Of a stretch of 64,000 nucleotides of DNA, positions 10,444 through 63,528 are shown in pieces. A program made the translations under genes and the position numbers. The notes below the pieces were generated by a model that searched no databases, was not told the DNA's origin, and saw nothing but the letters and a program-made list of their open reading frames with translations. Location of the stretch: assembly GCA_039927815.1 (NCBI GenBank), contig JBDSUJ010000034.1, positions 1,170 through 65,169 on the forward strand, read 5' to 3'. This DNA is from Croceibacterium sp. Its GTDB lineage: Bacteria > Pseudomonadota > Alphaproteobacteria > Sphingomonadales > Sphingomonadaceae. The stretch's first letter is position 1. Each line of letters begins with the position of its first letter.

Positions 10444-11019
10444 GTGGGTGATAATCAAGCCTTGTCCCACCGATCGGACCACGAGAGGCTTGCAGAAGAC
10501 CTCCAGCAGGTCGGGGACCGTGAATTGCACGCGCTTCATCGCGTCTATAAGGCGACCTCACGGAACCTGTTTGCGATTTGCATGCGGGTAACGCGAAACC
10601 GTGAGACCGCCGAAGACGTATTGCAGGAAGTGTACATCAAAATCTGGAACCGAGCTGCCGGCTATGATCGCGCGCGGGCTCACCCGCTGGTCTGGCTGTC
10701 GGCGATCGCTCGCAATAGCGCGATCGACGCGGTTCGCGCCCAAGGTCGGCACCAATCGCAGGACCTCTCAAGCGTACCGGAACTGGTGGACGACTCTGCC
10801 CCCGTGGATGAAGACATGGTGGCCCGCGAGCAAGAGCAGCGGGCGCTATCGATGCTGGACGAGCTTGCTCCCGATCAACAGGAACATATCAAGGCTCTCT
10901 ACTTTCACGGTATGACCTACGGGGAATTGGCTAACCAGGAAGGTGTTCCTCTCGGCACTATCAAGAGCCGCGTGCGCCGCGGCCTGATCCTGTTGAACGA
11001 ACGGTGGGCCAATGACTGA
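10444..11019 (+). CDS. ECF-type RNA polymerase sigma-70 family factor
   Basis: Region 2 (AEDVLQEVYIKIWNRAAGYD...HPLVWLSAIARNSAIDAVR) and region 4 (ALYFHGMTYGELANQEGVPLGTIKSRVRRGL) are clearly present. GTG start. Confidence 0.9.
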   Translation: MGDNQALSHRSDHERLAEDLQQVGDRELHALHRVYKATSRNLFAICMRVTRNRETAEDVLQEVYIKIWNRAAGYDRARAHPLVWLSAIARNSAIDAVRAQGRHQSQDLSSVPELVDDSAPVDEDMVAREQEQRALSMLDELAPDQQEHIKALYFHGMTYGELANQEGVPLGTIKSRVRRGLILLNERWAND

Positions 11020-11797
11020 CGAGTCTTTGCCCCCCGAAGAGCAGGAAGCCCTGGCAGCAGAGTTGGCACTGGGATTGCTCGAAGGTGAGGAGCGCGCGGG
11101 CGCCCTACGGCGGCAAATGGCTGATACGACGTTCGCGGCCGATGTGGCGCGTTGGGAGCAGGAGATCGCGCGCTGGATCGAAGAGCTTCCGGCCGAACAG
11201 CCGAGCGACGATCACTGGCGGCGGATTGAACGGGCGCTCGTCACCGGAAATGACAACGATGCCGGGTCCGTCAGGGCCTCCTCTTCGGGCGCGGGATGGA
11301 AATGGGGCACGCTTGCCGCGTCGTTGGCCGCAGTCGTGTTTGCGACGCTGTGGGCCGTGCGCGAGCCGCTCGATGCACCGGCGCAGCACGGGCCGATCGT
11401 GGCATCGGCTGGAGGCGTGATCCTTGATCGGAGTGGGCCGCCACAGGTCACGCCGCTAGCGGTCGGCGACCTCCGTGTCGGGCGCGCCGACGTCAATCAG
11501 GACAAGCTGCTGATCCAGGCCGCCTACGACCGTCGCAACGGTGTGTTGCTGCTCCGCCTTGGCGACATTGGCGATTCGACCCGCGTGCCCGAACTGTGGC
11601 TGATTGCGGACTCGGTGCCACGCTCATTAGGGTTTTTCATGCCCGGGGCCGCAGTGAAGACCACGCTGGATGCGCGCGACCGGCGCGCGCTTGAAAACGG
11701 CGCGGTGATCGCGGTCACCTTGGAGGCGCCGAGCGACAAGCCGCATGACAAGCCAGCAGGCCCGGTGCTGGGCAAAGTGGAGCTGTCCGCAATCTGA
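11012..11797 (+). CDS. Anti-sigma factor, RskA-like (single-pass, periplasmic C-terminal domain)
   Basis: Overlaps the sigma gene stop by 8 nt. N-terminal LAAELALGLLEGEER...ARWE helix pattern, central TM (WGTLAASLAAVVFATLW), and C-terminal LWLI...P.SLG...G pattern of the anti-sigma-K family. Confidence 0.75.
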   Translation: MTDESLPPEEQEALAAELALGLLEGEERAGALRRQMADTTFAADVARWEQEIARWIEELPAEQPSDDHWRRIERALVTGNDNDAGSVRASSSGAGWKWGTLAASLAAVVFATLWAVREPLDAPAQHGPIVASAGGVILDRSGPPQVTPLAVGDLRVGRADVNQDKLLIQAAYDRRNGVLLLRLGDIGDSTRVPELWLIADSVPRSLGFFMPGAAVKTTLDARDRRALENGAVIAVTLEAPSDKPHDKPAGPVLGKVELSAI

Positions 11798-11838: not shown

Positions 11839-12204
11839 CTACTTGTTTTCGAGAGTGGTCTTGTCGGCCAGGACGACTCTCACCAGTGAACCGCCTAACT
11901 TTCCGTTTATCAGCGGATGATAAGTCACGGTGACTTGGTCGCCGGGCTTCAGCGACGAGCGGCGCCACCCGCCATGAACGAGGTTGTTGGGGCTGGTCAT
12001 CTCGATGGCGAAGTTGCGTTTGGTGCCGCGAGTGTCAGCGACATCAACATGCATCCATGAATGCGGGTTGGTCCACTTGAAGTCGGTCACTACGGCTGCC
12101 GTGGTGACATCCTTCTTCATGTCGAACATGGCGAAGCTATGGTGCGCCAACGCCGCGCTCGAGGAGGCGGCCAGGATCAGGGTCACGACTGTCTTGCTGT
12201 GCAT
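11839..12204 (-). CDS. Small secreted DUF6152-like protein (paralog A1)
   Basis: 121 aa. Signal peptide ends AALA, followed by HHSFAMFD. Conserved W.NPH, GWRRSSLKPGD. One of four paralogs in the window. Confidence 0.8.
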   Translation of the reverse strand: MHSKTVVTLILAASSSAALAHHSFAMFDMKKDVTTAAVVTDFKWTNPHSWMHVDVADTRGTKRNFAIEMTSPNNLVHGGWRRSSLKPGDQVTVTYHPLINGKLGGSLVRVVLADKTTLENK

Positions 12205-12216
12205 GGTCTGCGCTCC

Positions 12217-12633
12217 TCAGTTCGTGGTCGGGACGTTGATCGGGCCGGTGCCGGTACGGATGTCGCCCAGCACGCGGCCGTCCGCCATCGTCACGTTCTT
12301 AAATAAGCCGCCCTTCTTGCCGCTCCGCAGTGGATTGAGGACCAGCGTCACCTTGTCGCCGGCTTTCAGAGACGAGCGGCGCCACCCTTGCCGCGTGAGA
12401 TTGTTCGGGCTGTTCAGCTCGACGCTCCAGCGCACTGGGGGTCCGCTTGCACCGGCGACGTCGAGTTCGATGAAAGCGTGCGGGTTGGTCCACTGGAATT
12501 GAACAACCTGGCCTTTGAGGGTGACGGCTTTGGCCTGGTCGAACATGGCGAAGCTGTGGTGGGCGCTGGCCGGGGCGGCACTGGTCACCGCCACCAGGGC
12601 GGCTCCGGCGATAATGGGGTTCCAAAAGCTCAC
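12217..12633 (-). CDS. Small secreted DUF6152-like protein (paralog A2)
   Basis: 138 aa. Signal peptide ends PASA, followed by HHSFAMFD. Conserved WTNPH, GWRRSSLKAGD. 12 nt upstream of paralog A1. Confidence 0.8.
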   Translation of the reverse strand: MSFWNPIIAGAALVAVTSAAPASAHHSFAMFDQAKAVTLKGQVVQFQWTNPHAFIELDVAGASGPPVRWSVELNSPNNLTRQGWRRSSLKAGDKVTLVLNPLRSGKKGGLFKNVTMADGRVLGDIRTGTGPINVPTTN

Positions 12634-12648: not shown

Positions 12649-13539
12649 TCATTTCGTCTTTGCGCGCTCGTCCAGCGTCTGCTGACCGCGGTCGGTGCCG
12701 GGCAGGTTGGCATTGCGTGCCTCGGTACATTCGACCTCGCCAATGTCCGCTTCTGGCACTCGGTCCCACCGCTTGGTGTTGTGCCACTCCCCTTTCCAAT
12801 TATCGGGGTCGGTCATGATATATTCGATTTCGAGGACCTGCCCCGCGTTGAGAAGCTTGATGCGCTCCACCATGTGAAACTTCTCGCCGACGGGCAGTCC
12901 CTGATCGATCCAGTGGTGATCGGTTTCAAAGCCCTGCGTGTCCACGATCAGCGTGTCGTCCTCCCAATGGCCGAGGGATTCGCCGTTGTACGTCGGAACA
13001 TAGATGTCGGGATCGGTATGCGCGCGGCCGTCGAGGTAGATGGTGCGGAAACTGTTGGTGAAGCCGGCGGTCATGTAGATGGCCGTCGGTACCTGGACGA
13101 ACATGATCGGCCACACGCGCGTCATGATCATCGGCATGCCGGCGGGATAGCATTGGCCGATGCTGTCGCGGTAATTGACGCCGCGCGCGCGAGACGCCGC
13201 ACCTTCGACGAGAGCTTTTTTTCCTGCGTCGTAAAACTCGGGATAAGGCGGCCCGAACATGAACTTGTTGAACCCGGCGCTCAGGTCGATGAACCAGGTT
13301 CCGGTCATGTCGAACGGCGGCTTGGGCCGCGGCTTGGCGAGGTTGGCCGGATCGAGTGCGCCCGCGAGGCCGGGATGGCGTTGCTGCATTACTTCGAGCT
13401 GTTCGGGCGGGATGGCGCGCGTTCTGTCTCGCTCCTGCGCGGCAACCGGCGCGACAGCCACCACGACCGCCGTCAGCGCCAGCCCGCAGTGGCGGGCACA
13501 CCTCGTCAAATCGATGGCACCAATGGTCCTTTTTGTCAT
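12649..13539 (-). CDS. Periplasmic protein of unknown function (partner family, copy P-A)
   Basis: 296 aa. N-terminal signal/anchor GLALTAVVVAVAPVAAQE. Shares motifs C.P.GMP.IM, R.IY.DGR.H.D, GESLGHWEDDTLIVDT, HMVERIKL and ECTE with ORFs 61529-62278 and 62733-63521. Confidence 0.75.
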   Translation of the reverse strand: MTKRTIGAIDLTRCARHCGLALTAVVVAVAPVAAQERDRTRAIPPEQLEVMQQRHPGLAGALDPANLAKPRPKPPFDMTGTWFIDLSAGFNKFMFGPPYPEFYDAGKKALVEGAASRARGVNYRDSIGQCYPAGMPMIMTRVWPIMFVQVPTAIYMTAGFTNSFRTIYLDGRAHTDPDIYVPTYNGESLGHWEDDTLIVDTQGFETDHHWIDQGLPVGEKFHMVERIKLLNAGQVLEIEYIMTDPDNWKGEWHNTKRWDRVPEADIGEVECTEARNANLPGTDRGQQTLDERAKTK

Positions 13540-13722: not shown

Positions 13723-16323
13723 ATGACGACACAGGGGGCGACGTCGGGATTTGGGCTGCAGGCGATTCGATCCACGGCGCTGATCGGTGCCGGCTGGCTC
13801 GCACTAGCGGCAAACGCCGCACACGGGCAGGCAGTCGCCCAACAGCCGCGGGCGACCGACGCCAACGCCGCCAAGGACGCCAACGGCACCAACGCCGAGA
13901 GCGATGACGGCACGCGGACCACGGACATCGTGGTGACCGCTGAACGCCGAGCGATGAACCTGCAGGATACGCCGCTCTCGATCCTGGCGGTGACGCAGGA
14001 GACGGTCGAGGCAAAGGGTATCCAGGATCTTCAGGACCTGTCGCACTTCACGCCGAACCTCAACATCACGCCGACGCGCGGCAACGGCACGGGTGCGGTC
14101 AACTTTACCATCCGAGGCATTTCAGGCGGCGGCGGCGCGGCAGGCGAGCGCGGCGTCGGCCTTTATGTCGACGGCATTTTCATGCCCCGCACCAGCGGCT
14201 CCGTGCTGCGCGTGCTCGATATCGACCGGATCGAAGTGCTGCGGGGGCCGCAGGGCACCCTGTTCGGACGCAATTCGACCGGCGGCGCGATCCGAATCTT
14301 CAGCAAGCAACCGACCGATGTTCTCGAAGGCTCGCTGGAAGTCACCGGCGGAAATTTCGATCGTCGTGATGTTGTCGGCATGATCAACGTGCCGCTCGGC
14401 AATGGCTTCGCGGTGCGGGCGCAGGGCGCATACCTCAACAAGGGCGGCTTTGTCCGACGTGGTACCGAGATGCTCGGCGCCGAAAGGGATTATGTTGGCC
14501 GCATTCAGGTGGCGGGTGAGTTAACTCCTGACCTAAAAATCACCGCAGGCTTTCTCTACAACAAGTCGGAAGCCAACGGTTCGCCGTTCGTGGTCCAGGA
14601 ATTCGACTTGCGGCCTGGCATCGACGGGATCATCCAGGGCAATTACGGCGGCTGGCTAAACGATGCCTTCAAGGCTGCGGGCCAAGCACCAATCGCGCCT
14701 TATAACGACCCCCGCTTTGTCAAGGGCCCGTACGCGGCGTCGGACGTGTGCTTCCTCGATGATTTCGACCCCGATTACGACCCCGCCTGCAACCAGATCA
14801 ACAATGATGACTACTGGCAGGCAGATTTGCGGATCGACTGGAAGCCGACCGACGATTTGAGTGTGCACTCGATCTCCGGTTACTCGAAGCTCAAGCATCG
14901 GGCGCAGAACGATCTGGAAATGATCGGCTTCGAACGACGCTATGACGACATCGATTCAAAGGTATTCTATCAGGAACTGCAGCTCAACGCGGCGCTGCTT
15001 AACAACGCGATCGATCTGGTTACCGGTGTGACGTACTTCCACGAAGACAGCGCGGCGCCGAACAATTACGTTCTCAACCGGCGCGGCACCGCCACGTATC
15101 CGAGTAACAAGGGCAATCCGCCCAATTCAGACGGCGGCCTGTACACGCGCACTATCAGCGACGTGTTCCAGACCTCGGATTCGTTCGGGCTATTCGGCAG
15201 CGCCACCTGGCACATCATCGACGGCCTCAACCTGACGGGCGGCTTGCGTCAGGCGTGGGACCACAAGGACTATCGCCAGAACCGCTACCAACCGCCGACG
15301 ACGCAGTTCCAGGGCCCCGACTTTGTCTTTCGGCCAGGAGTGACTTCGTCATCCGCATCGAAGAGTCAGTCGTTCCAGGCGCTCGATTATCGTGCGACGC
15401 TCGATTATCACTTCACGCCCGATATCATGGCCTATGCCACGGTATCCAAGGCGTACAAAGCAGGCTCCTTCAGCGCGACGCTACAGGGCTACACCCCACC
15501 CCCGGCCACGGCACCGCCAGGCACCTTGGGCATCGGCGGCGACGCGAACCAGGACAGTATCGTCGCGACGCTGCCGAATGAAAAGGTCATCAATTACGAG
15601 GCGGGCGTACGCGCCACGCTGTTTGATCGCCGCCTGCGGATTAACCCGACCATCTTCAAGATGGAATGGAGCAACCGTCAGGCGGCCGTGCGCGTCAATT
15701 GCGGGACCGCGGGGACGGCGCTTGCTAACCTGGTCGCCGGCAGCGCCGCGTGCCCGGTCGGCTTCTTGCCACTTGTGCAGGACCAAGGCACCGCTAAGAT
15801 CAAGGGCCTCGAGGTTGATGCGCAGCTCGTGCTGATCCCTGGGCTGACGCTGGACGGCAACCTGGGACTGACCGATTACAAGCTGACCAATGTTCCGGTC
15901 GTTGCGGCGGGCGCGTTCCCGATCGCTCACTTGTTCCCCGACATTCCTAAAATCAGCTACAGCCTGGGCTTCTCTTACGGCATCCATGAAGCCTTCGGGC
16001 GGGCAACGATGAGCGTGAACTACGCGTTCGTCGGCAAGCAATGGGTCTACCCCGACGACAATCCCGATTCGACCTACCGGCTCCCGTCCTATGGCCTGGT
16101 GAATGCGCGGTTCCAGATCGAACCGGCCAACTTGCCGATCACTTTGACGATCGCAGCGAACAACCTGCTTGGCGAAGTTTACGCGACTTACGCCCAGCGG
16201 TTCGGCGGCGGGTTCTGGGATTCGGGCGCAGGTACGGGCATTGCAGCTCCGCCGCGCAATATGCTGAGCGTGGTTCGTGGCCGCCCGCGCGACCTGAGCC
16301 TGTCGCTGAAGTACAGCTTCTGA
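13723..16323 (+). CDS. TonB-dependent receptor (cluster A)
   Basis: Real start is ATG 13723, preceded by GAGGGGGGAAG. Signal peptide ends ANAAHG. Plug-domain motifs DIVVTAERR...LQDTP.SI and IEVLRGPQGTLFGRNSTGGAIRI. C-terminal barrel ends SLKYSF. No N-terminal signalling (STN) extension. Confidence 0.9.
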   Translation: MTTQGATSGFGLQAIRSTALIGAGWLALAANAAHGQAVAQQPRATDANAAKDANGTNAESDDGTRTTDIVVTAERRAMNLQDTPLSILAVTQETVEAKGIQDLQDLSHFTPNLNITPTRGNGTGAVNFTIRGISGGGGAAGERGVGLYVDGIFMPRTSGSVLRVLDIDRIEVLRGPQGTLFGRNSTGGAIRIFSKQPTDVLEGSLEVTGGNFDRRDVVGMINVPLGNGFAVRAQGAYLNKGGFVRRGTEMLGAERDYVGRIQVAGELTPDLKITAGFLYNKSEANGSPFVVQEFDLRPGIDGIIQGNYGGWLNDAFKAAGQAPIAPYNDPRFVKGPYAASDVCFLDDFDPDYDPACNQINNDDYWQADLRIDWKPTDDLSVHSISGYSKLKHRAQNDLEMIGFERRYDDIDSKVFYQELQLNAALLNNAIDLVTGVTYFHEDSAAPNNYVLNRRGTATYPSNKGNPPNSDGGLYTRTISDVFQTSDSFGLFGSATWHIIDGLNLTGGLRQAWDHKDYRQNRYQPPTTQFQGPDFVFRPGVTSSSASKSQSFQALDYRATLDYHFTPDIMAYATVSKAYKAGSFSATLQGYTPPPATAPPGTLGIGGDANQDSIVATLPNEKVINYEAGVRATLFDRRLRINPTIFKMEWSNRQAAVRVNCGTAGTALANLVAGSAACPVGFLPLVQDQGTAKIKGLEVDAQLVLIPGLTLDGNLGLTDYKLTNVPVVAAGAFPIAHLFPDIPKISYSLGFSYGIHEAFGRATMSVNYAFVGKQWVYPDDNPDSTYRLPSYGLVNARFQIEPANLPITLTIAANNLLGEVYATYAQRFGGGFWDSGAGTGIAAPPRNMLSVVRGRPRDLSLSLKYSF

Positions 16324-16385: not shown

Positions 16386-16880
16386 CTACGACAGCCCGCT
16401 CGCAGGCTCATCATCGACAGGCGGCGAGCGTTGGGCATCAACGCGCGTGGCGATGGTGGTGAGGGTCGTATCAAAGACCAGCTTCTGCTTCGGGGTCAGG
16501 TCCTGCAGGATCGCTTCGAAATAGCGGGTCCTCATCGCGGTGATCTTTTCGAAAACCTCGCGCCCGGCCGGGGTTTCCGTGATAATCTTGAATTTGCGGT
16601 TCCTGGAGCTTGATTCCCGCACCACCAGGCCATTGCGGATCAAAGAAGCAACCGCGCGGCTGACCAGGCCCGGGTCGATCTCGAATGACGACGATACGTC
16701 GACGGCAGTCGCGGGCCCAAACGAACAAGTCACCGCGATCACGCGCCATTCTGACACCGACACGTTGAACCGGGCTTGCATTTCGCGGGCCAGTTCGCGC
16801 TCCACCATGCGGGTCAACAGGTGCATCCGCAAAGGGATGAAATACTCGCCAGTCTGGCTCCAGGTGCGAGGCAAGGACAT
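16386..16880 (-). CDS. MarR family transcriptional regulator
   Basis: 164 aa. Winged-helix core VSVSEWRVIAVTCSFGPATAVDVSSSFEIDPGLVSRAVASLIRNGLVVRESSSRNRKFKIITETPAGRE. Confidence 0.85.
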   Translation of the reverse strand: MSLPRTWSQTGEYFIPLRMHLLTRMVERELAREMQARFNVSVSEWRVIAVTCSFGPATAVDVSSSFEIDPGLVSRAVASLIRNGLVVRESSSRNRKFKIITETPAGREVFEKITAMRTRYFEAILQDLTPKQKLVFDTTLTTIATRVDAQRSPPVDDEPASGLS

Positions 16881-25758: not shown

Positions 25759-26642
25759 CGGGCCCTATTGCCCACGTCGGGCCCAACCTGCCGATGGACC
25801 TTCTGCGGGCAACCGGCCGTCACGCGGGCGCAATAGCGTTCGATCCCGATCGTTCTACGCCGGTCGCAGACCAGTGGATGGAGACGAAGTTCGCCCCGTG
25901 GGCCAAAGTCATTCTCGAGGGGTGGGCAGCCGGCGAATACGACGAGCTGGCACAAGTTCTGTTCAGCCGGGCGGACGACAGCGCGCAGCGCTTATATTAT
26001 TACGTATGCGAGCTGCAGCGGCGGGGACTCGTTGGTGGACCCGAGCCGCTGATCCTCGATATCGCGAAAGTTCCGCGTGCCAGCAGCATCGATCACACCG
26101 CGCATTGCGTGCGTCAATTGACCGTGCGGTTGGAGGTCGACGAGGACGTGCTGGTCACCGCGATCGAGACTTGCAATGCGGAGCGATCCGTTGCTGCCAG
26201 CGCGGTTGGGAGGCCGGTGTGCCTTCTCGCCGGCACTCCGCCGCCTGACGGACGGCTGCATGCTGCCATTCGTCAGGCCGGCTTCGTCCCGGTCGGGCGG
26301 ACTTTGCTCGAAACCTGGAATCAGCTGGGTTCACCGGTCGACTTGACCACTGGCGACGCCTGCGCCGCGTTGGCCCGCCAGATACACGGCGATCCGCAAG
26401 GGCCGCGGTCGTTTGCTGATCCCGGCGCCATGTTGAGCGGTGCATTATCCGCCACTGGCGCGACGGCTGTCATCCTGTGGCAGACGGAGGAAGACGAAGC
26501 GCAGGCCTGGCATCTGCCGGCTCAGAGAGCAGCCCTGTCCACCGCAGGCGTATCGGCTCTGGTCATGACCCGCCGCGACTGGCTCGGCCGCGATGCTGCG
26601 GCACACGAAATCACCGCGTTCCTCGGGGGAATTAAGGCATGA
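25755..26642 (+). CDS. Divergent 2-hydroxyacyl-CoA dehydratase family (BcrC/BadD/HgdB-like) protein, short form
   Basis: 295 aa. ATGA overlap with dctM. N-terminal IAHVGPNLPMDLLRATG and C-terminal AVILWQTEEDEAQAWHLPAQRAALSTAGVSALVM resemble the family termini (...P.E...A.G / ...G.P.L..). The upstream 233 codons of the track ORF lie inside dctM and were rejected. Confidence 0.5.
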   Translation: MTGPIAHVGPNLPMDLLRATGRHAGAIAFDPDRSTPVADQWMETKFAPWAKVILEGWAAGEYDELAQVLFSRADDSAQRLYYYVCELQRRGLVGGPEPLILDIAKVPRASSIDHTAHCVRQLTVRLEVDEDVLVTAIETCNAERSVAASAVGRPVCLLAGTPPPDGRLHAAIRQAGFVPVGRTLLETWNQLGSPVDLTTGDACAALARQIHGDPQGPRSFADPGAMLSGALSATGATAVILWQTEEDEAQAWHLPAQRAALSTAGVSALVMTRRDWLGRDAAAHEITAFLGGIKA

Positions 26643-28723
26643 GCCTGCTCAAGGGCCATCGCGTCGCCATTGTCGGCGGGATGGCGAACCGGCCATTGGC
26701 GCGGTTCCTCGCTTCTCTTGGCGCGGAGCTGGGCGGCCCCGTCGAAGGGGCATCGTTTGTCATCGACGATCTCGGGCTGGAGGCGACCCGCGCCTTGCCA
26801 ATCGCCGAATCCACGGTGCACGTGTCGGTCACACCATTTGGCTCGGGCGGGCCGCGCAGCCAGTGGCGGGGCAGCGAGCTGGTGGCTTCCGCCACCGGAG
26901 GCGCCCTTCGCGTCACCGGAGAGCCGGGTCGTCCGCCGGTCAAGGAAGCCGGTGATGCCTGCACGTTCCACGCCGACATGGTCGCCGCCGCCGGAGCGAT
27001 GGCGGCGCATTACGCACGTGGCACCCACGGCCGGGGCCAGCATGTCGACGTATCGATCCAGCAGGTCGCCTTCAGCCGCAACACGAACGGCGTGCTTGTC
27101 TGGCAGTTCGACAAGCGGAAGCTCCATCGGGTGGGCGGCAAGCTGGCGTACGGCAAGGCGACCATCCGCGCGATCTGGCGGCTCGCGGACGGGTGGTGCT
27201 TCCATTCGCTGATGACCGGGAGGCTAGGCGCGCCAGCGAACCGTGCGCTGGCGGAGTGGATGGACGAGGAGCCGGCGGAAAATCCGCTGCGCGGCGTCGA
27301 TTGGCTGAGCTACAACCGCTCGACCCTGCCTGCCGAGACCCGCGCACAGTGGGAAGCGGCCATCGCCGCGTTTTTCGCCCGGCGCACCAAGCAAGACATC
27401 GCCGACGAAGGGCTGCGCCGCGGCATCAACGCCTGCGTGGTCAACGAGCCTGCCGATGTGCTCGCTGACGCCCATCTGGCAGCGCGCGGCTTCTTCGACA
27501 CCGAGGACGGCCTGCCGCGGAGGTTTGCGGGGATTGTCGAAGGCGGGCACGCGACGCCGCACGAAAGCCATGGCGGTTCCCGCCCGGGCCCCCTGGCAGG
27601 CGTGCGGGTACTCGACTTTGCTTGGGCGCTGGTGGGCTCGATCACGACCAAGACGCTCGGCGACCTGGGTGCCGACGTCGTCAAGATCGAGAGCCGCACC
27701 CGGCCCGACCTGTCGCGCATGGACGTGCAGGTTTCGGCCTCGCAGCATGGCGATTTTGATGACAAGCCATGGTTCGCGCACCTCAACTCGTCCAAGCGGA
27801 GCGTGACCCTGAATCTCAAGCAGCCGGCTGTCTGGGAGATCCTGCGGCCCCTGATCGAATGGGCCGATGTGGTGGTCGAGAACTTCTCCCCCGGGACGAT
27901 GGCCAAGCTCGGGCTTGGATACGCAGACCTGCAGGCGATCAACCCGCAAATCGTGATGGTCTCGGGCAGCGTCTACGGACAGACCGGCCCCCTGGCGCAG
28001 GAATGGGGCGTGGACGGTACCGGGGGCGCGCTGTCGGGCCGGACCTTCCTGACCGGTTACCCAGGCGGTGATCCGGTGATACCCGGCGCTGTGCCCTACG
28101 GCGATGTAATCGTACCGTTCGTGATGGCGGCTTGCGTCGCTGCCGCGTTGCAAACGCGCCGCGAAAGCGGGCAAAGCTGCCACATCGATGCGTCGATGTA
28201 TGAAATCTGCGTCCAGCAGATGCGGCCCTATCTCGCCGCCGCGATGGCAGGGGAAAGCCCTCAGCGTGCCGGGAATGCCGATCCGGGCGTGTTCTTCCAG
28301 GACGTGTTCCCGGCTGCGGGCGAGGATCGCTGGGTCGCGATCAGTGTTGCGGATGAGCCCGAGTTGGAACGGCTGAAAACCGTGACGGGCAGCGACATCG
28401 CGGGCTGGACCGCGACCCGTGACGACCACGCAATCGCGGATCAGTTGCAGGCCCTCGGGTTCGCCGCGGGGGTCGTGCAGGATTGCGAAGACATGATCGA
28501 GCGCGATCCGCAACTGACCGAGCGCGGGTCGCTGGTCGAACTCGACCATCCCGTGCTGGGTCCGTTCGGGCATATCGCCACCCCGATCCGCTTTTCGCGC
28601 GACGTCCCACAGCCGTACCGTGCTCCGCGCATGGGTGAGCACGGGCGCGAAGTTGCCGCGGAACTGTGCAACCTTGACGACGCGCGGATCGATGAACTGC
28701 AGCAATTGGGAGTGTTCGAGTGA
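26639..28723 (+). CDS. Tandem-domain family III (CaiB/BaiF) CoA-transferase
   Basis: 694 aa. Residues ~320-694 form a canonical module (LAGVRVLDFAWALVGSITTKTLGDLGADVVKIES...). Residues 1-~310 form a second, more degenerate module (LKGHRVAIVGGMANRPLARFLASLGAEL...SATGGALRVTGEPGRPPV). ATGA overlap upstream and GTGA overlap downstream. Confidence 0.85.
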   Translation: MSLLKGHRVAIVGGMANRPLARFLASLGAELGGPVEGASFVIDDLGLEATRALPIAESTVHVSVTPFGSGGPRSQWRGSELVASATGGALRVTGEPGRPPVKEAGDACTFHADMVAAAGAMAAHYARGTHGRGQHVDVSIQQVAFSRNTNGVLVWQFDKRKLHRVGGKLAYGKATIRAIWRLADGWCFHSLMTGRLGAPANRALAEWMDEEPAENPLRGVDWLSYNRSTLPAETRAQWEAAIAAFFARRTKQDIADEGLRRGINACVVNEPADVLADAHLAARGFFDTEDGLPRRFAGIVEGGHATPHESHGGSRPGPLAGVRVLDFAWALVGSITTKTLGDLGADVVKIESRTRPDLSRMDVQVSASQHGDFDDKPWFAHLNSSKRSVTLNLKQPAVWEILRPLIEWADVVVENFSPGTMAKLGLGYADLQAINPQIVMVSGSVYGQTGPLAQEWGVDGTGGALSGRTFLTGYPGGDPVIPGAVPYGDVIVPFVMAACVAAALQTRRESGQSCHIDASMYEICVQQMRPYLAAAMAGESPQRAGNADPGVFFQDVFPAAGEDRWVAISVADEPELERLKTVTGSDIAGWTATRDDHAIADQLQALGFAAGVVQDCEDMIERDPQLTERGSLVELDHPVLGPFGHIATPIRFSRDVPQPYRAPRMGEHGREVAAELCNLDDARIDELQQLGVFE

Positions 28724-30009
28724 GCGCACCACTATCGGGCGTGCGAAGCCGCAAGACGCTTACTTGCACCGCCGAAGCGACGGCATTTCAGAAGGCATTC
28801 GGTCAAGACCTCAAGCGGCAGGTGGTCGATGAGGGCGAACCTTTCGTCATTGCCCAGGCCGACACGCCGCACGAAATCTTCCATGCCATGGATATCCCGG
28901 TGATCTCCAACCAGTGGTGGTCCGCGTACATTTCGGCCAAGCAGCTTTCGGGGCGCTACTTCGATGCGATGGCGCAAGCCGGCTACCCGGCCAACAGCTG
29001 CAAGTACTGCTCGCTGGGCCTCGCCTGCACGATCGCCAATGATCCGACGACTGCGCCTTGGGGCGGCCTCCCCACTCCCACCGCGATCGTGGCGCGGCTA
29101 ACGTGCGATTGCATCCAGCACGTCTTCACCCAGTGGGCAGCCGCCATGGGCACCGACTTCTTCGCAATGGAAGCGCCAGCGTGGGAAACCAAGACGCTTG
29201 ATTGGTACACTCGCTCGAGCACCGAATGGGAAAGCCTCTATCAGCCCGACCGCATCAACCTGATGGTTCAGGAGATGGGGGATTTGATCACCTTGCTAGA
29301 ACGCAAGACCGACCGCCGCTTCGACCGCGCCAAACTGGACGCGTTGATGCAGCGTATCGACGTGCAGGAGCGGGCACTGTGGGAAGCCGCCCGCGCGATC
29401 GGCGAAGCGCGTCCATGCCCGGTTTCGATCGCCGAGCAGATGCCCAATACGATGATCCCCCAGTGGCATCGGGGCTCAGACTGGGCGGTTGCGCATTCCG
29501 AGAAGTTCCGCGACGAGGTCCAGCAGCGGATCGACCAGGGCCTCGGCGCGGCGAGCCATGAGCGGTTGCGGCTGATGTGGATCGGGGCCGGGGTGTGGCA
29601 CGACCCGGGGTTCTATCAGGCGCTTGAAGAGAGCCTGGGAGCTGTCTTCGTCTGGTCCATGTACCTACCCTTCGCCGGGCCCCAGTACATTCGTGAGACG
29701 CACGGGCGGACGATGGACGCGCTGGCCAGCCGGATCTGCTCGATCAACGAAGTGCTGCACCTCCCGCCGTGGATGAATGGCTGGATGGTCAGCGAGGCCA
29801 AACGCTGCGAACTCGACGCCGCCGTCATGCTCCTGCCGCCCGACAACCGGTTGTCGCAATCGGGTACCAAGCTGACGGCGCTGGCGCTCGAGGAAGCGGG
29901 CGTGCCGGTGCTCATGATCGATGCCGACATGGTCGATGCCAAGATCTGGGACCACGCCAAGATGGTGGGCCTGGTCGCGCAGTTCCTCGAGCAGCGGGGG
30001 CTGACGTGA
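28720..30009 (+). CDS. 2-hydroxyacyl-CoA dehydratase family (HgdA/BcrB-like) protein
   Basis: 429 aa. PHEIFHAMDIPVIS, NSCKYCSLGLAC, RLMWIGAGVWHDPGFYQALEESLGAVFVWSMY and the C-terminal LEEAGVPVLMIDADMVD follow the architecture of the HGD-D family. Confidence 0.65.
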   Translation: MSAPLSGVRSRKTLTCTAEATAFQKAFGQDLKRQVVDEGEPFVIAQADTPHEIFHAMDIPVISNQWWSAYISAKQLSGRYFDAMAQAGYPANSCKYCSLGLACTIANDPTTAPWGGLPTPTAIVARLTCDCIQHVFTQWAAAMGTDFFAMEAPAWETKTLDWYTRSSTEWESLYQPDRINLMVQEMGDLITLLERKTDRRFDRAKLDALMQRIDVQERALWEAARAIGEARPCPVSIAEQMPNTMIPQWHRGSDWAVAHSEKFRDEVQQRIDQGLGAASHERLRLMWIGAGVWHDPGFYQALEESLGAVFVWSMYLPFAGPQYIRETHGRTMDALASRICSINEVLHLPPWMNGWMVSEAKRCELDAAVMLLPPDNRLSQSGTKLTALALEEAGVPVLMIDADMVDAKIWDHAKMVGLVAQFLEQRGLT

Positions 30010-31046
30010 CGCCCGTGCGATCCCTCGCCCTGCTCGTGGCGGTGCTCCTGGGAGCATGCACGCGGCCGATTCCGCCGGGCGTTACCGAGCTGACCTACGC
30101 CACCCCCTACGCACCGACCCACCCATTCAGCCGCGCCGACCAGCGGTGGATCGACCACATTGAGTTAGCGTCGGGTGGATCGCTCAAGATCGTGCCGATG
30201 TGGTCTGGCGCGCTGTTGTCATCGGATATGTCGCTTGAGGAGCTGCGCCACGGCGTGGCCGATATCGGCTTGGTCACACCGATCTATACCCGCGGCGGGA
30301 CGCATCTCGTACGCATCCAGTCGGGGTTCTACAGCGGCGCGGACTCGATCGCTTCCCAAGTGGCGCTCTACGGTTGCCTCGAGCGTTCTGTGCCGGAACT
30401 GTCACGCGAGTTGCACGGGCTGCATGTGCTGGCGGTGCAGGGCGGGCTTCTGCCCGGGATCGTCACCAGCAAGCGACCGGTGAAGTCGTTGGCCGATCTG
30501 AAAGGCTTGCGGATCCGTGCCCCAACCGAATTGCTTACCGTCCTGCGCGGCCTTGGCGCCGATCCAGTCAACATGCCGATGGGCGACGTCTATTCCGCGC
30601 TGGCGCGGGGCGTCATCGACGGCGTGATTGCCCCGATCGACACGTTTCGCGCGCTCCATTTCGACGAGGTGGGTCATTACTACGCGACGCTCTCCGTGCC
30701 CCGGGGCGCCTACCCTTCGCGCGCGATCGGCGATGCCGCATGGGCCCGGCTGACCCCTGTGCAACAGCAACTATTATTGCAGTCGCGGTCCGTGTGGGAG
30801 GCAGACTTGCGCGATGAGATAGAGAAGGGCGCGGTGACCGGGGCTGCGGCCGCCAAAAAGTCAGGAGTGCGGATCGTCGACTTCGCCCCGGCCGAGCAAG
30901 CGCGGTTCGACGCGCTGTACCTGGCCGACGCGCAAACCAACGCGCGGGCGCTCGCGGCCTTCGGCATCGACGGGCTCGACGCCTTCCGCAAGGCGCGCGC
31001 GAGCGTCCGCACCAGAGACCATATTCAATGCAGAGGGGCCGCGTGA
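30006..31046 (+). CDS. TRAP transporter substrate-binding protein (DctP-like), lipoprotein
   Basis: GTG start overlapping the previous stop (GTGA). Lipobox LLGAC. Core GLRIRAPTELLTVLRGLGADPVNMPMGDVYSALARGVIDGV is typical of DctP. Confidence 0.8.
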   Translation: MTPVRSLALLVAVLLGACTRPIPPGVTELTYATPYAPTHPFSRADQRWIDHIELASGGSLKIVPMWSGALLSSDMSLEELRHGVADIGLVTPIYTRGGTHLVRIQSGFYSGADSIASQVALYGCLERSVPELSRELHGLHVLAVQGGLLPGIVTSKRPVKSLADLKGLRIRAPTELLTVLRGLGADPVNMPMGDVYSALARGVIDGVIAPIDTFRALHFDEVGHYYATLSVPRGAYPSRAIGDAAWARLTPVQQQLLLQSRSVWEADLRDEIEKGAVTGAAAAKKSGVRIVDFAPAEQARFDALYLADAQTNARALAAFGIDGLDAFRKARASVRTRDHIQCRGAA

Positions 31047-32245
31047 ACCAGCCACTGACGGGTATCCGGGTGGCTGATTTCAGCCATGTCATGGCCGGGC
31101 CTTTCGCCTCTCATCTGCTACGGCTGATGGGTGCGGAAGTCATCAAGATCGAACCCAAGAGCGGCGATCAATTCCGCGACTATAGTCCCGATCCCGGCTT
31201 TGCCGGCATGAGCCCGCCCTTTATCGCGGCCAATGTCGGGAAGAAGTCGATCGCGCTCGACCTCAAGGATCCGAACGAAAACGCGATTGCCCGCTCGATC
31301 GTCGAGCGCAGCGACGTGTTGATCGAAAATTTCCGGCCCGGGGTCATGGCTCGCCTCGGTCTTTGCTACGAAAAGGTCCAGCAGACGAACCCCGGGATCA
31401 TTTATTGCTCGGTCTCGGGTTACGGCCAGAACAGCCCTCAGCGCGATTGGCCGGCCATCGACAATATCGTTCAGGCCACCGCGGGCATGATGATGCTGAG
31501 CGGCGGAGAGGGCGAACCGCCGGTGCGCGTCGGCTTCCCGATCGTCGACACGCTGGCCGGGCAGACCGCCGCGCTCGCGATTCTGGGTGCCATCGTCCAG
31601 CGCCAGGCGACGGGGCAGGGGGCGCAGATCGATGTCTCGATGTTCGATGCCACGCTCGCGTTCATGACGTCGGCCATCACGCCCTATCTGGTGACCGGTC
31701 GCGCCATGAAGCGGATGGGCAATACCGGCTATAGCGGGTTGCCAACGGCCTCGCTGTTCACGTGCCGCGACGGGCGCCAGATCTCGCTCGGGATCGTGCA
31801 GGACAACCAGTTCGCCGCCTTCGCCAAGCGTGTCGGCCGGGAGGACTGGCTGACCGACGAACGCTTCAGCACGCCGACGGCGCGTCGAGCAAATTTCGAT
31901 GCCGTTCACGCCGAACTGGCGACGACGTTCGCCCAGCGCGACGCGGCGCAATGGGAAGCCGAATTGAGCGCCAACGGAATCCCGTGCGGCATGATCCGCA
32001 CGGTCAACGAAGCCGTCGATCTGGCGAGCGAGGCAGGCCTCCTGCACGTGGCTATCCCGGGCATTCCTCAGATTGGCACCCTGGCCATTCCCAATGCCGG
32101 CTTCCAGATGAAGCCGGGCTCGCCCGGAACCGCCGAACCGCCGCCCCGGCTCGACGAGCACCGCGAGGAGATTCTCGAATGGCTCGCGCACGATCCCGGA
32201 GATAAAGGTAAGGGCGTCAAAACCGGCGGTGGAGAGGCAAAATGA
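31043..32245 (+). CDS. Family III (CaiB/BaiF) CoA-transferase
   Basis: LTGIRVADFSHVMAGPFASHLLRLMGAEVIKIEP... is the canonical N-terminus. GTG 31043 gives a GTGA overlap with dctP. An in-frame ATG at 31028 is the alternative start. Confidence 0.9.
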   Translation: MNQPLTGIRVADFSHVMAGPFASHLLRLMGAEVIKIEPKSGDQFRDYSPDPGFAGMSPPFIAANVGKKSIALDLKDPNENAIARSIVERSDVLIENFRPGVMARLGLCYEKVQQTNPGIIYCSVSGYGQNSPQRDWPAIDNIVQATAGMMMLSGGEGEPPVRVGFPIVDTLAGQTAALAILGAIVQRQATGQGAQIDVSMFDATLAFMTSAITPYLVTGRAMKRMGNTGYSGLPTASLFTCRDGRQISLGIVQDNQFAAFAKRVGREDWLTDERFSTPTARRANFDAVHAELATTFAQRDAAQWEAELSANGIPCGMIRTVNEAVDLASEAGLLHVAIPGIPQIGTLAIPNAGFQMKPGSPGTAEPPPRLDEHREEILEWLAHDPGDKGKGVKTGGGEAK

Positions 32246-56166: not shown

Positions 56167-57762
56167 TCACACCAGTGGCAGTTCAACCGCTGACGCCCAT
56201 ACTCCATGCACCTGGCTGCTCAGCTTGAACGGCAGGATCACGCGGGCAAGATCGCCGTCTTCCATGCGCTCGGCGTCAAGGATGACGAGTTCCGAGCGGG
56301 CTTCGGCGAAGTTGCTGGCGACCCCGACCAGGTAGCCGTGGCCTTCTCCGCCGCCCTTGCGGGGCACGAAGGTCAGCTCCTGCAAGCCATGCGTGGGTCC
56401 GGTGAAATACTTGTGCAGCTCGCCGCTCTTGAGGTCGAAGCGACCGTAACTGTTGACCGGCGGGCGGGCGAGACCCGGCGAATGGGCGCGGTCGAACGGC
56501 CTCTCCGGATCGACGAACGAGGTGTAGAGATAGCGCGTTTCCAGGCTGAGGACCTGCGGGTCGACTTTGCCGAGGTCGGAGATGCTCGTCGGCCACAACA
56601 CCTCTTCGGTCCACCCGCCGCTGCGCGAGGACATGTCCAGCGTGATCTTGCGCACCAATGCGCGCGCGAGTTCGGGCTGGAACGGGGTGCCATCGACATT
56701 GGGGAAGAAGGGGAAGAAATTGCCGTCATAAAACGGGGCATACAGGACGACCTTATGGCCTTCGTCGTGGGCGTTGAAGGTGTGCATCATGCAGCGCAAC
56801 GGACCTTCGAACCAGCGCATGTCCTTGGCCTCGCCGTCGCGTGGCAGCACTCCGATGCGGCTCCGTTGGGTCTTGTCCCAACCCCAGTGAACCTTGCCGC
56901 TCTCCAACCGCTCCGGGCTGGTAACGTAGCCGGCGAAGGGGAAGATCATGTGCTTCTGGGTCAGCGCCATATCATGCATGATGCTGACATACGGGACGCG
57001 CGTGCGAATCTCCTGTTTCACCACACCACGCGAATCGAGACGGTAAACCCACAACGCATCGCTGGCGAGCCCGTCGGCTTCGTTACCGTAAGCGATCATG
57101 TCTCCGGAAACCGGATCGATCTTGGGATGGGCGGTGAACGTCTGGCTTTTCCAGCCGCCGTTGAAATCCCAGGTGCCGATCGTCGCCAGCGTGTTGGGAT
57201 CGATCTGGTGCGGGAGTCCGTCTTCCTTGAGCGCAAAGAGCTTGCCATTGTGGACCAGCGGTGCGGTGTTGGCGACGGTGCGGCGGTTGGGATGCGCGGG
57301 ATCCCGCACCATTGGATCATCGGTATAAGGGTTGCGGTAATAGCCGTAGAGCTGCCGGCCGGCGGACCGAAGCCGGGTGAGGCGCTCGGTCTCGATCCAG
57401 CGGCCTCTGAAGTCCACCTTGCCGTTCTTGATGCGGAACATGCTTATATAGCCGTCGGCATTGAGAGGGGCGTCGTCAGGGAACTTCGGCGGATAGTAAA
57501 ACTCGCCGCCCACGCGGTAGAAGGCTCCGTCCATGTCGGTGGGGATCTTGCCGACCACTTCGCAATCGCGGACTTCGGCGTCGAACCTCAGCGGAGCGTT
57601 GAAGCCCCGTCCCGGAGCTGTGTTCGCCAGCGGATTGAGCGACTTCCCATCCCACGGCGACGGGCTGCCATCCGCGTCACCAGCTTGGGCCCGGGCGGCG
57701 CCGGCGGCCTGGGCAGCAACCACCGTGCCGAGTGTGGCGCCCATGAACTCTCGCCTCTTCAC
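56167..57762 (-). CDS. Carotenoid cleavage oxygenase family protein (lignostilbene dioxygenase-like) with twin-arginine signal
   Basis: GTG start (VKRREFMGATLGTVVAAQAAGAARAQA) overlaps the upstream stop (GTGA). Body motifs FNAPLRFD.E, G.IP.D.DG.FYR.G, TAHPK.DP..G and HDMALT match RPE65/CCO enzymes. The usual four conserved His positions appear to be present. Confidence 0.85.
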   Translation of the reverse strand: MKRREFMGATLGTVVAAQAAGAARAQAGDADGSPSPWDGKSLNPLANTAPGRGFNAPLRFDAEVRDCEVVGKIPTDMDGAFYRVGGEFYYPPKFPDDAPLNADGYISMFRIKNGKVDFRGRWIETERLTRLRSAGRQLYGYYRNPYTDDPMVRDPAHPNRRTVANTAPLVHNGKLFALKEDGLPHQIDPNTLATIGTWDFNGGWKSQTFTAHPKIDPVSGDMIAYGNEADGLASDALWVYRLDSRGVVKQEIRTRVPYVSIMHDMALTQKHMIFPFAGYVTSPERLESGKVHWGWDKTQRSRIGVLPRDGEAKDMRWFEGPLRCMMHTFNAHDEGHKVVLYAPFYDGNFFPFFPNVDGTPFQPELARALVRKITLDMSSRSGGWTEEVLWPTSISDLGKVDPQVLSLETRYLYTSFVDPERPFDRAHSPGLARPPVNSYGRFDLKSGELHKYFTGPTHGLQELTFVPRKGGGEGHGYLVGVASNFAEARSELVILDAERMEDGDLARVILPFKLSSQVHGVWASAVELPLV

Positions 57763-58679
57763 TTGTCGCCGCCCGAGGTCCACGGTGAGCGTTGGTAGTA
57801 CGGAGCTTGGTAGAATGTCGCCACCACGGCGGCGATGCACCCATCCTGGACCTTGAACATCTCAAGAAACGCCCAGCTCTGCGGTTCCTGGAACACCGAC
57901 TTCGCCTTGGTCCCGTCGGTTAGAAGATAATCGTCGAGCACACCCTTGTGATCGATAAAGCCGCGCGCCATCGCAATCTGGCGCTCTTCGTCCACCAGCA
58001 CGATTTCTCGCCGCACCCGGTTGTTGAAAGCGTACCGCCCAGACCGGAAGCCGCCACCGATATCGGCAAACAGCATGCCGTTTTCCCGCCGCGTCGCATC
58101 GCTGCGAAAACAGGTGCCGCGGATTTCGCCGTTGTTGTGCTGGAGGGTGTCGAAATAGCCGTTCGCGTGGGCGATCAACTGTTGTCGGCTGAGTCGTTTC
58201 TCTCTCGGCGCAGTCTGCATGATAATGGGATCGTGGACGTACTCGGACACCTTGCCGATTGGCGTGGGCGGGCTGCTCAGGTTCCGGCGGGTCGAAATCA
58301 CATGTTCGACCTCGGTGATTCTTCCGCCAACGACTTTGAGGCGGATCGCGAGGAAGCCTTCTATTTCGCGTTGCCGTGTCGCGGTGAATATGCCGACTGC
58401 TCCCAGCCGCGGATCGGACAGGATGAGCGCCGGCCCGGGCTCTTGCGTCACGGTGTCCCAAGTCCCGTCGGTAAACGGCATTGCGACATTGTTTTCCGTA
58501 AAGCGAACTCGGGCGGCAAACGGGGCCAATTTGGGATCGTGAGCGAGGTAGGCAGCGCGGTACTTGGCCGCGATTGCTTCAAGGCAGACCCGGTCGCAAG
58601 CTTGGGGTTTTGCGGCGAGTCCCGTCGGCACCGCCGCGGTCATCATGAGACAGGCAACAAGAGCCCTCAGGAATTTCAT
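57759..58679 (-). CDS. Secreted protein of unknown function (306 aa)
   Basis: Signal peptide MKFLRALVACLMMTAAVPTGLAA. GGGGAGGA Shine-Dalgarno. Translationally coupled to the oxygenase gene. No family recognised. Confidence 0.65.
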   Translation of the reverse strand: MKFLRALVACLMMTAAVPTGLAAKPQACDRVCLEAIAAKYRAAYLAHDPKLAPFAARVRFTENNVAMPFTDGTWDTVTQEPGPALILSDPRLGAVGIFTATRQREIEGFLAIRLKVVGGRITEVEHVISTRRNLSSPPTPIGKVSEYVHDPIIMQTAPREKRLSRQQLIAHANGYFDTLQHNNGEIRGTCFRSDATRRENGMLFADIGGGFRSGRYAFNNRVRREIVLVDEERQIAMARGFIDHKGVLDDYLLTDGTKAKSVFQEPQSWAFLEMFKVQDGCIAAVVATFYQAPYYQRSPWTSGGDK

Positions 58680-63521: not shown

Positions 63522-63528
63522 CGGCCCG

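Follow-up and report, generated by a model that had tools for sequence, protein, structure and literature searches.

What could require four small secreted proteins, all encoded in one 64,000-nucleotide stretch of Croceibacterium sp. DNA (contig JBDSUJ010000034.1; this whole stretch is called the window below), to begin with two consecutive histidines once their predicted signal peptides are removed? An earlier note on this DNA, made from the letters and the open reading frames (ORFs), had proposed that these residues form a histidine brace, the type of copper site in which the free amino group of an N-terminal histidine takes part. The four proteins belong to the family DUF6152, here called D, and their genes are coupled to those of a second secreted family, here called P. 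The reading that we favour as a whole, and favour tentatively, is that D carries a periplasmic N-terminal-histidine metal site on a new scaffold and that it works with P as a ligand-binding partner.

The ORF listing bears out the four minus-strand reading frames that the earlier note had singled out (Table 1), and the junctions it had given, AALA/HHSFAMFD, PASA/HHSFAMFD, AAQA/HHSFAVFFD and PALA/HHSYAMFD, are correct for the 11839, 12217, 62278 and 63529 copies, respectively. At the A-S-A/H-H junction the DNA was read directly as GCC AGC GCC CAC CAC AGC TTC GCC ATG TTC GAC. An alignment of the four copies also confirmed the invariant elements A-H-H-S, N-P-H, G-W-x-R and K-x-G-D, with K(P/A)GD and GW(R/T)R present in every copy and the histidine of NPH falling at mature residue 28. 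Each copy has an n-region and an h-region, followed by A-x-A directly before His-His; for the 63529-63897 gene, the start at ATG 63897 is favoured over GTG 63969 because it yields the canonical signal peptide MKKATLILTVAAVIAAVPALA. The copies are paralogs, the others being 35-52% identical to the first in the four-way alignment. All match Pfam PF19649 (DUF6152), with scores of 111.2, 128.5, 102.3 and 110.4 bits against a gathering threshold of 27, over model positions 2/3 to 93-97 of 98. Since it is shared by four paralogs that all match PF19649 at 102-128 bits, the motif is not a chance occurrence and is instead a hallmark of the family. The D proteins of the window had no Pfam match besides DUF6152 and no NCBIfam match, and the NCBI record of a protein identical to the 138-amino-acid (aa) product of the 12217-12633 gene is named "DUF6152 family protein". 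The four ORFs are predicted from their sequences to encode periplasmic DUF6152 proteins.

DUF6152 is a catalogued but unstudied family, and it is among the larger ones of unassigned function. A profile search of 1.84 billion representatives returned 15,152 clusters (50% identity) at E<=1e-3 and 7,743 at E<=1e-10, and the literature searched contained no paper that mentions DUF6152, PF19649, DUF6644 or PF20349. All 120 of 120 close homologs have a small residue and HHSFAMFDQ right behind a variable hydrophobic leader. Conservation was assessed with 134 representatives of different 50%-identity clusters, drawn from the 150 best-scoring of the 15,152, and weaker members of the family could differ. 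In this set His1, His2, Pro27 and His28 are each found in 134 of 134 sequences, Gly59 in 100%, Glu48 and Gly68 in 99%, Asn26 in 98%, Ser3 and Asp8 in 97%, Trp60 in 93%, and Phe7 and Asp69 in 92%. Glu48 is thereby a further invariant residue, one that did not appear in the earlier list. Position -1 is Ala in 93% and otherwise Gly, Ser or Val (Ala, Gly and Ser together account for 99%), position -3 is Ala in 79% and otherwise mostly Val, Leu or Ser, and position -2 is variable. Strong conservation sets in exactly at His1, with the residues upstream of -2 varying. This onset, together with a satisfied -3/-1 rule for signal peptidase I, argues for cleavage directly before His1, and throughout the family the mature protein is predicted to start with His-His. 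The His1-His2 motif is probably part of a metal site.

The likely surroundings of the two histidines can be approached through a structural model. The mature product of the 12217-12633 gene was modelled with AlphaFold2 (predicted local distance difference test score (pLDDT) 81.6; predicted template modelling score (pTM) 0.74), and the model has strands at residues 13-24 (beta1), 29-35 (beta2), 43-48 (beta3), 70-78 (beta4) and 85-92 (beta5), and a helix at 52-57. The modelled fold is a classical OB-fold of five strands with the helix between strands 3 and 4. Foldseek comparison with the PDB gave only OB-folds among the best 50 matches, including LysRS anticodon-binding domains, SSB and PriB, with E about 2e-3 and TM-scores about 0.5; these matches were rejected as a functional lead, being generic folds at that E value. 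A search of PDB sequences with the family profile (E<=10) found no solved relative of D. In the model, NPH forms the beta1-beta2 loop and Glu48 stands at the end of beta3, and the topology of the OB-fold would gather the N-terminus, the NPH loop and Glu48 at one end of the barrel.

Covariation within the family was analyzed as mutual information with average product correction, using 289 non-redundant domains. The top covarying pairs (32-44, 34-44, 76-86 and 74-89) reproduce the predicted sheet registers. Residue 4 covaries with residue 23 (z 5.1, rank 16 of 4656) and with residue 25, which relates the N-terminal segment to the end of beta1, and further pairs join residue 9 with 49 and 86, and residue 6 with 84 and 78. 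An antiparallel register of residue 4 against residue 23 would put His1 and His2 opposite residues 25-26 and next to His28, with Asp8 near Glu48. The convergence of His1, His2, His28 and Glu48 in one pocket is in this way supported indirectly, by the model and the covariation.

The partner P was absent from the earlier account of this DNA. Its linkage to D was followed in 80 loci from GTDB genomes that were searched with D and P profiles and that cover Sphingomonadales, Caulobacterales, Micropepsaceae, Steroidobacteraceae, Bordetella, Acidobacteriota, Dormibacterota and Eremiobacterota. Of the 95 gene runs that contain D, 80 also contain P, and the commonest architecture is P-D-D-P, which was seen 33 times. 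The two P genes of this arrangement encode distinct types, P1 (about 296 aa) and P2 (about 266 aa), which are 34% identical to each other and 60-67% identical within either type across loci. The same is true of D1 (about 137 aa) and D2 (about 125 aa), which share 50% identity, compared with 61-66% within either type. In the divergent form found in Acidobacteriota, p2 is 58% identical to the proteobacterial P1 and p1 is 47% identical to the proteobacterial P2. These comparisons indicate that the conserved quartet P1-D1-D2-P2 is an ancestral unit of two paralogous pairs. Locus 1 of the window reads P1-D1-D2 with gaps of 12-15 nt and with ribosome-binding sites: the P1 gene ends 15 nt ahead of the D1 start, and the D2 start lies 12 nt past the D1 stop and is preceded by the ribosome-binding site GAGGAG. 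Locus 2 reads D-P-D-P, and there the TGA stop of the 62278-62667 D gene overlaps the ATG of the next P gene (61529-62278) by one base, an arrangement that suggests translational coupling.

D and P are also found as parts of one polypeptide. A search with the natural fusion P0344 detected 98 D-linker-P proteins behind a signal peptide (346-436 aa), which stem from few independent fusion events and form at least two lineages, with 87 and 9 members. The A/HH junction stands directly behind the signal peptide in 96 of the 98. The search returned no protein with P before D, whereas unfused D/P operons show both gene orders, a difference that fits a need for His-His at the processed N-terminus. His1, His2, Asn26-Pro27-His28, Glu48, Gly59-Trp60 and Gly68 are invariant across the fusions; Ser3 is replaced by Gly in 83 of them, and Asp8 varies. 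D is nearly always encoded beside P or fused to it, a coupling that is shown genetically. Fusions of the Steroidobacteraceae type (P0391, P0392, P0393 and P0344) have linkers with Gly/Met-rich repeats (e.g. GMGMGAGMGAGGMDAGGMAADGMGAEGMGGEGMGGGMGG). These linkers, which occur in one fusion lineage only, recall the methionine-rich segments that bind Cu(I).

The three P proteins of the window are mutually homologous, secreted, and 23-34% identical. No Pfam family was found for P even at E<=5 over 122 members, and none was found in NCBIfam. Homologs fall into more than 2,600 clusters, and all named ones among the matches listed are called "hypothetical protein". A profile search of the PDB returned no meaningful sequence relative. 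An AlphaFold2 model of P (pLDDT 83.9) has N-terminal helices and a beta-barrel of 8-10 strands, and its best Foldseek matches are CRABP2, FABP5, CRBP1 and other calycins, with TM-scores of 0.55-0.60 on the target and 0.3 on the query. From this weak match, P may be an FABP/lipocalin-like barrel of an unnamed family. Residues invariant throughout the family are Cys130, Cys271, Pro132, Gly134, Pro136, Arg165, Asp170, Gly186, Trp192, Glu225-Arg226, Asp244-Pro245 and Arg260, with no conserved His among them, and Cys130 and Cys271 presumably form a disulfide. The arginines of CRABP and FABP bind the carboxylate of the ligand. P resembles these proteins and CRBP in its possible ligand-enclosing barrel, and CRABP and FABP in its conserved arginines; it differs in being twice as long and in having N-terminal helices, the disulfide, a signal peptide, and no sequence similarity to them. 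The ligand of P is probably a small organic compound of hydrophobic or anionic character. P1-type proteins have, in addition, a Met-rich loop modelled with low confidence, CxPAGMPMIM (residues 130-139 of the 12649-13539 product), which follows the invariant Cys. This loop was considered as a conserved Cu(I) site and rejected as a family feature, since its methionines are not conserved in other P types.

The genes around D and P give some indication of what the pair might act upon. A Pfam census of the 128 genes immediately flanking D/P runs (the top 25 families are listed, so that rare ones are invisible) was led by TonB-dependent receptors with 13 genes, followed by DUF6644 with 9, the metallo-beta-lactamase fold with 7, the major facilitator superfamily (MFS) and MarR with 4 each, and SnoaL, IclR, cytochrome b561 and glutathione S-transferase with 3 each. 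Genes for aldehyde dehydrogenase, RPE65-type dioxygenase, carboxylesterase, short-chain dehydrogenase and pyrroloquinoline quinone (PQQ) dehydrogenase also recur near D/P. The link to a TonB receptor that had been drawn earlier is real, and a module of receptor, P-D-D-P and MarR regulator recurs in Sphingomonadales; but a receptor profile places a TonB-dependent receptor within 1.5 kb of only 24 of 103 runs (13 of the 33 PDDP runs). Sphingomonads carry 39-153 receptor genes, and at least one such receptor, DdvT, imports a lignin-derived biphenyl (PMC7376174). On one Sphingobium plasmid, sulfonate-utilisation genes were seen near D/P.

A different kind of neighbour is the membrane protein family DUF6644. 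Paired, adjacent, paralogous DUF6644 genes stand directly beside D/P in 17 of 81 loci from four phyla (L010, L011, L013, L014, L018, L019, L021, L022, L024, L027, L036, L048, L051, L062 and others). The pairs, such as those at L062:11762-12744 and L082:5313-6288, are often part of the D/P operon, as in the P-D-D-P-X-X arrangement of L062, and the same arrangement of DUF6644 with D/P is found on a Novosphingobium humi plasmid. The DUF6644 proteins have about 160 aa, four transmembrane segments and one invariant His in the first helix. Weak matches connect 9 of 14 of these proteins with DUF2214 (best E 1.2e-6) and 4 of 14 with CopD (best E 2.5e-4). The histidine-brace Cu(II) protein CopC has CopD as its partner in the membrane, where CopD is considered to import copper (PMC8424229). 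The DUF6644 pair may be a membrane component of the D/P system, and it is the only contextual hint toward copper.

The mechanism that we propose would start with signal peptidase I, which we expect with strong confidence to cut after A-x-A and so to expose His1-His2 at the start of a mature OB-fold domain of about 100 residues. With moderate confidence, the N-terminal segment would dock along beta1 and bring His1 and His2 beside the Asn26-Pro27-His28 loop and Glu48, and the outcome would be one pocket of three histidines and one carboxylate at the open end of the barrel. The pocket would hold a single transition-metal ion, for which a brace-like Cu(II) site, as in CopC, YcnI and the lytic polysaccharide monooxygenases (LPMOs), is the leading candidate and Ni, Zn and Fe are alternatives. 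We lean slightly toward the pocket binding some transition metal, and copper in particular is a possible but doubtful identity for it. D would work in complex with P, or hand over directly to P, which would hold the ligand. The module would receive receptor-imported compounds in the periplasm and then either transform them, probably by oxidation, at the metal site of D or relay them, and a CopD-like or cytochrome b561 membrane partner would take part in some loci. The genes next to the module, which encode TonB-dependent receptors, MFS transporters, MarR regulators and enzymes of aromatic catabolism, suggest a role in handling receptor-delivered compounds; we regard it as evenly balanced whether the module does process or relay compounds from neighbouring receptors, sometimes with a membrane partner. 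A more specific version would make D and P a two-subunit or fused periplasmic copper enzyme of a class not recognised before, with a brace-like Cu site formed on the OB-fold by His1-His2, His28 and Glu48, with small hydrophobic or aromatic substrates that enter through TonB-dependent receptors and are presented by P, and with electrons supplied by CopD-like DUF6644 or cytochrome b561 membrane partners. This version is quite improbable; if true, it would be a small-molecule counterpart of the LPMOs, widespread in soil Proteobacteria and Acidobacteriota.

Comparison with known systems helps to delimit what D could be. Most like it are CopC and YcnI, small secreted beta-proteins in which signal-peptide cleavage exposes an N-terminal His, as is predicted for D; a second His, a carboxylate or both complete their Cu(II) site, and in YcnI a Trp lies close by (PMC8424229, PMC10952591). 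The composition of the putative D site, with its N-terminal His, further His, carboxylate and nearby Trp, parallels these sites. D differs from CopC (PF04234) and YcnI (DUF1775) in its modelled OB-fold, in the lack of Pfam, NCBIfam or PDB sequence similarity, in having an invariant His-His rather than His-x, and in its calycin-like partner and catabolic context. The likeness extends to CopC/CopD pairs in that CopD-like proteins with four transmembrane segments accompany D/P in 17 of 81 loci; here, however, the membrane partner consists of two separate DUF6644 proteins, which are weakly CopD-like and absent from the window. A two-part system of the CopC/CopD type was not found in the window, where no CopD-family membrane gene lies beside D.

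LPMOs are built on an immunoglobulin-like beta-sandwich with a flat face that binds polysaccharide, whereas D is an OB barrel of about 100 residues with an invariant His2, and no carbohydrate-active context was seen around it. LPMOs (AA9-AA17), which have the canonical histidine brace, and D are alike in a signal peptide that is cut (in D, by prediction) directly before His1 and in a second invariant His elsewhere in the chain; the conserved Glu/Gln-type and aromatic residues of D are second-sphere candidates, and an oxidative role is conceivable (PMC10952591). Membership in the LPMOs is not indicated by any Pfam match or PDB sequence match, and no LPMO is among the best 50 Foldseek matches. 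CusF is a periplasmic chaperone for Cu(I)/Ag(I) that has an OB-fold and binds its metal through His36, Met47, Met49 and Trp44. D is likewise predicted to be a small periplasmic five-stranded OB barrel, and the two can be aligned weakly and co-linearly (G-x-V in beta1, K-x-GD-x-V before beta4), but the metal ligands of CusF are absent from D and cusCBA is not among the frequent neighbour families. Homology to CusF was rejected, with an hhalign probability of 4.4%. Finally, cupins such as quercetin dioxygenase and germin have mononuclear centres of three His and one Glu, the same inventory as in D, and a link through aromatic oxidation is plausible; their fold is entirely different, and in D two of the histidines are the first two mature residues. 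By analogy, D would work most like the N-terminal-His copper sites of CopC and YcnI, or like LPMOs if it is catalytic, while being a member of none of these families.

Several observations weigh against a brace-like metal site in D. The convergence of the histidines is drawn from the topology of the modelled fold and one covariation signal, and the modelled fold of P was matched weakly (Foldseek E about 1e-3). To our knowledge no known histidine-brace protein has an OB-fold; the literature searched contained no paper that joins the two, and similarity of D to CopC, LPMOs or CusF was not detected. The HHS motif has some role that does not depend on a free amine, as indicated by tandem D-D fusions, of which there are four among the 150 representatives (P0287, P0289, P0292 and P0244): in three of the four, the second domain keeps an internal HHS (e.g. 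GSEHHSYSETYD) and has lost NPH. P is not always present, since D-only DDDD clusters occur in Bordetella and Micropepsaceae (L020, L028 from a Bordetella metagenome-assembled genome, L033 and L037), flanked by an unknown protein of about 210-223 aa, an MmgE/PrpD-family protein and an MFS transporter. The gene neighbourhood of D/P is one of organic and aromatic catabolism and uptake, not of copper homeostasis; families for copper resistance or homeostasis are not among the 25 commonest in the 128 flanking genes, a census in which rare cases are invisible. The presence of several paralogs per genome, four of them in the window, fits substrate-specific roles better than metal homeostasis. DUF6644, with its hint of copper, is absent from most loci, and the window has no DUF6644 or CopD-like ORF. 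The histidine-brace idea that the earlier note had put forward for DUF6152 is in sum plausible: the predicted N-terminal His and the three invariant His residues speak for it, and a fold of no known brace family and a catabolic rather than copper-related neighbourhood speak against it.

The same observations bear on other explanations. D could be purely a metal trafficker, a chaperone for Cu, or for Ni or Zn, in the manner of CopC, YcnI or CusF, which would pass metal from the TonB receptor to a DUF6644 importer, with P as an accessory or a metallophore binder. The combination of N-terminal His, second His and Glu does resemble the sites of CopC and YcnI (PMC8424229), and CopD-like DUF6644 pairs beside D/P in four phyla would supply the importer. 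Methionine-rich elements also occur, in the linkers of some fusions and in the P1 loop CxPAGMPMIM, although the latter is not conserved across P types, and the modelled OB-fold of D is common to it and CusF. A trafficker would nevertheless hardly be expected as four D genes in 64 kb, with many paralogs elsewhere, among catabolic enzymes, MarR and MFS genes rather than CopA, Cus, multicopper oxidases and metal regulators; about 80% of the loci, including those of the window, lack DUF6644, whose match to CopD is weak. We consider metal trafficking as the sole function of D unlikely.

A pocket without metal is another explanation that we think unlikely. His1, His2, His28 and Glu48 would then carry out acid/base chemistry, recognize a carboxylate or phenolate, or clamp D to P. 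The internal HHS retained by tandem second domains that lack NPH speaks for such a pocket, and the setting in organic-substrate catabolism and the tight D-P coupling are also in keeping with it. The absolute invariance of three histidines and the glutamate and the strictly N-terminal position of D in 98 fusions are, in contrast, typical of metal sites, and a free N-terminal His-His is by its nature a strong chelator of Cu(II) and Ni(II).

The third explanation shifts the emphasis to P, which would act as a passive shuttle, taking up a hydrophobic or aromatic ligand at the receptor and delivering it to an MFS transporter, while D would be only an adaptor that docks the complex to the receptor, to TonB or to the transporter. 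The FABP/CRABP-like barrel of P with its conserved arginines, the receptor and MFS genes nearby, and the import of aromatic compounds by sphingomonad receptors (PMC7376174) would all accord with such a shuttle. It would leave the invariance of the three His and Glu and the strict N-terminal position of D unexplained, three quarters of the runs have no receptor within 1.5 kb, and the DDDD clusters have no P; we regard it as improbable. Lastly, the signal peptide might stay on as an uncleaved anchor or be cut elsewhere, leaving the histidines internal, as might be imagined from the D1 signal peptide, whose n-region has no basic residue and which offers alternative small-residue cleavage sites (APA/SA), but the 99% Ala/Gly/Ser at -1, the small or aliphatic residues at -3, the variability upstream and the onset of conservation at His1 make this highly improbable. 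The favoured reading continues to be that of an N-terminal-His metal site on D with P as its ligand-binding partner.

Within the window, the two D/P loci lie on either side of a region (20144-57840) that is, by its genes, an aromatic/lignin-type catabolic island. Its enzymes include an RPE65/lignostilbene-type dioxygenase, a tannase/feruloyl esterase, a glutathione S-transferase, a flavin monooxygenase, an extradiol (VOC) dioxygenase, a fumarylacetoacetase, an amidohydrolase_2 protein and CoA-transferases. The window has four TonB-dependent receptors and several MFS transporters, and D/P genes stand beside only two of the four receptors (Table 1). An assignment of receptor specificity from the PDB was dropped, since the similarity of both of these receptors to PDB receptors is confined to the generic plug domain. 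Signalling of the FecI/FecR type was likewise rejected for the extracytoplasmic function (ECF) sigma/anti-sigma pair near locus 1, the anti-sigma factor being RskA-type and the pair convergent with the operon.

Table 1. Genes of the two D/P loci in the window and of their immediate surroundings
Feature	Coordinates	Strand	Remarks
ECF sigma and RskA-type anti-sigma factors	10444-11797	+	convergent with the D genes; at the P2 position of homologous loci
D2-type DUF6152 gene	11839-12204	-	121 aa; PF19649; DNA read; signal peptide MHSKTVVTLILAASSSAALA; predicted mature N-terminus HHSFAMFDM; His1 codon 12142-12144
D1-type DUF6152 gene	12217-12633	-	138 aa; PF19649, 128.5 bits; type from length and quartet gene order; signal peptide MSFWNPIIAGAALVAVTSAAPASA; predicted mature N-terminus HHSFAMFDQ; His1 codon 12559-12561
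P1-type partner gene	12649-13539	-	296 aa; secreted; first gene of the P1-D1-D2 operon; no Pfam or NCBIfam family
TonB-dependent receptor	13723-16323	+	plug and barrel Pfam matches; start ATG 13723; divergent from P1, 183-bp intergenic region
MarR-family regulator	16386-16880	-	beside the 13723-16323 receptor
TonB-dependent receptor	58910-61477	+	convergent with the D-P-D-P operon
P gene	61529-62278	-	249 aa; signal peptide MRLIAFASLLLLVPSAALA
DUF6152 gene	62278-62667	-	129 aa; PF19649; signal peptide MRNRLLLAAALCCAGTAAQA; predicted mature N-terminus HHSFAVFFD; His1 codon 62605-62607
P gene	62733-63617	-	maximal ORF 294 aa; likely start GTG 63521, giving MRLVLGFLLATAAAAPALA/QLG
DUF6152 gene	63529-63897	-	122 aa from ATG 63897; ORF extendable to GTG 63969; signal peptide MKKATLILTVAAVIAAVPALA; predicted mature N-terminus HHSYAMFDM; His1 codon 63832-63834

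Three other groups of genes in the window were noted in passing. The gene at 57759-58679 (minus strand), between the RPE65-type dioxygenase and a TonB receptor, encodes a 306-aa protein without a Pfam family, and in 14 of 81 loci a homolog of it lies no more than 6 kb from a D/P cluster. At 26639-32245 (plus strand), two family-III CoA-transferases surround a gene resembling the D-component of 2-hydroxyglutaryl-CoA dehydratase (PF06050), a pairing that is unusual for an aerobic sphingomonad. The segment 4853-9389 (minus strand) encodes, one after another, three products with functions unassigned: a DUF4331 protein of 567 aa, the product of an ORF of 249 aa and a 667-aa DUF4394-autotransporter.

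N-terminal-histidine metal centres form a short list, and they attract strong interest for oxidative catalysis. If the metal site of D is real, it would add to that list both a new scaffold, the OB-fold, and a new ligand pattern consisting of His1-His2, a distal His and a Glu. The analysis also defines an unnamed partner family P, the four-gene unit P1-D1-D2-P2, the D-P fusions and an occasional CopD-like membrane pair. The D proteins are small and soluble, with obvious point mutants and well-bounded loci, which makes the proposal testable by simple biochemistry. DUF6152 is spread over several soil and freshwater phyla, and in sphingomonads the D/P system would represent a periplasmic step, essentially uncharacterised in these bacteria, between TonB-dependent import and the cytoplasmic catabolism of aromatic or hydrophobic compounds.

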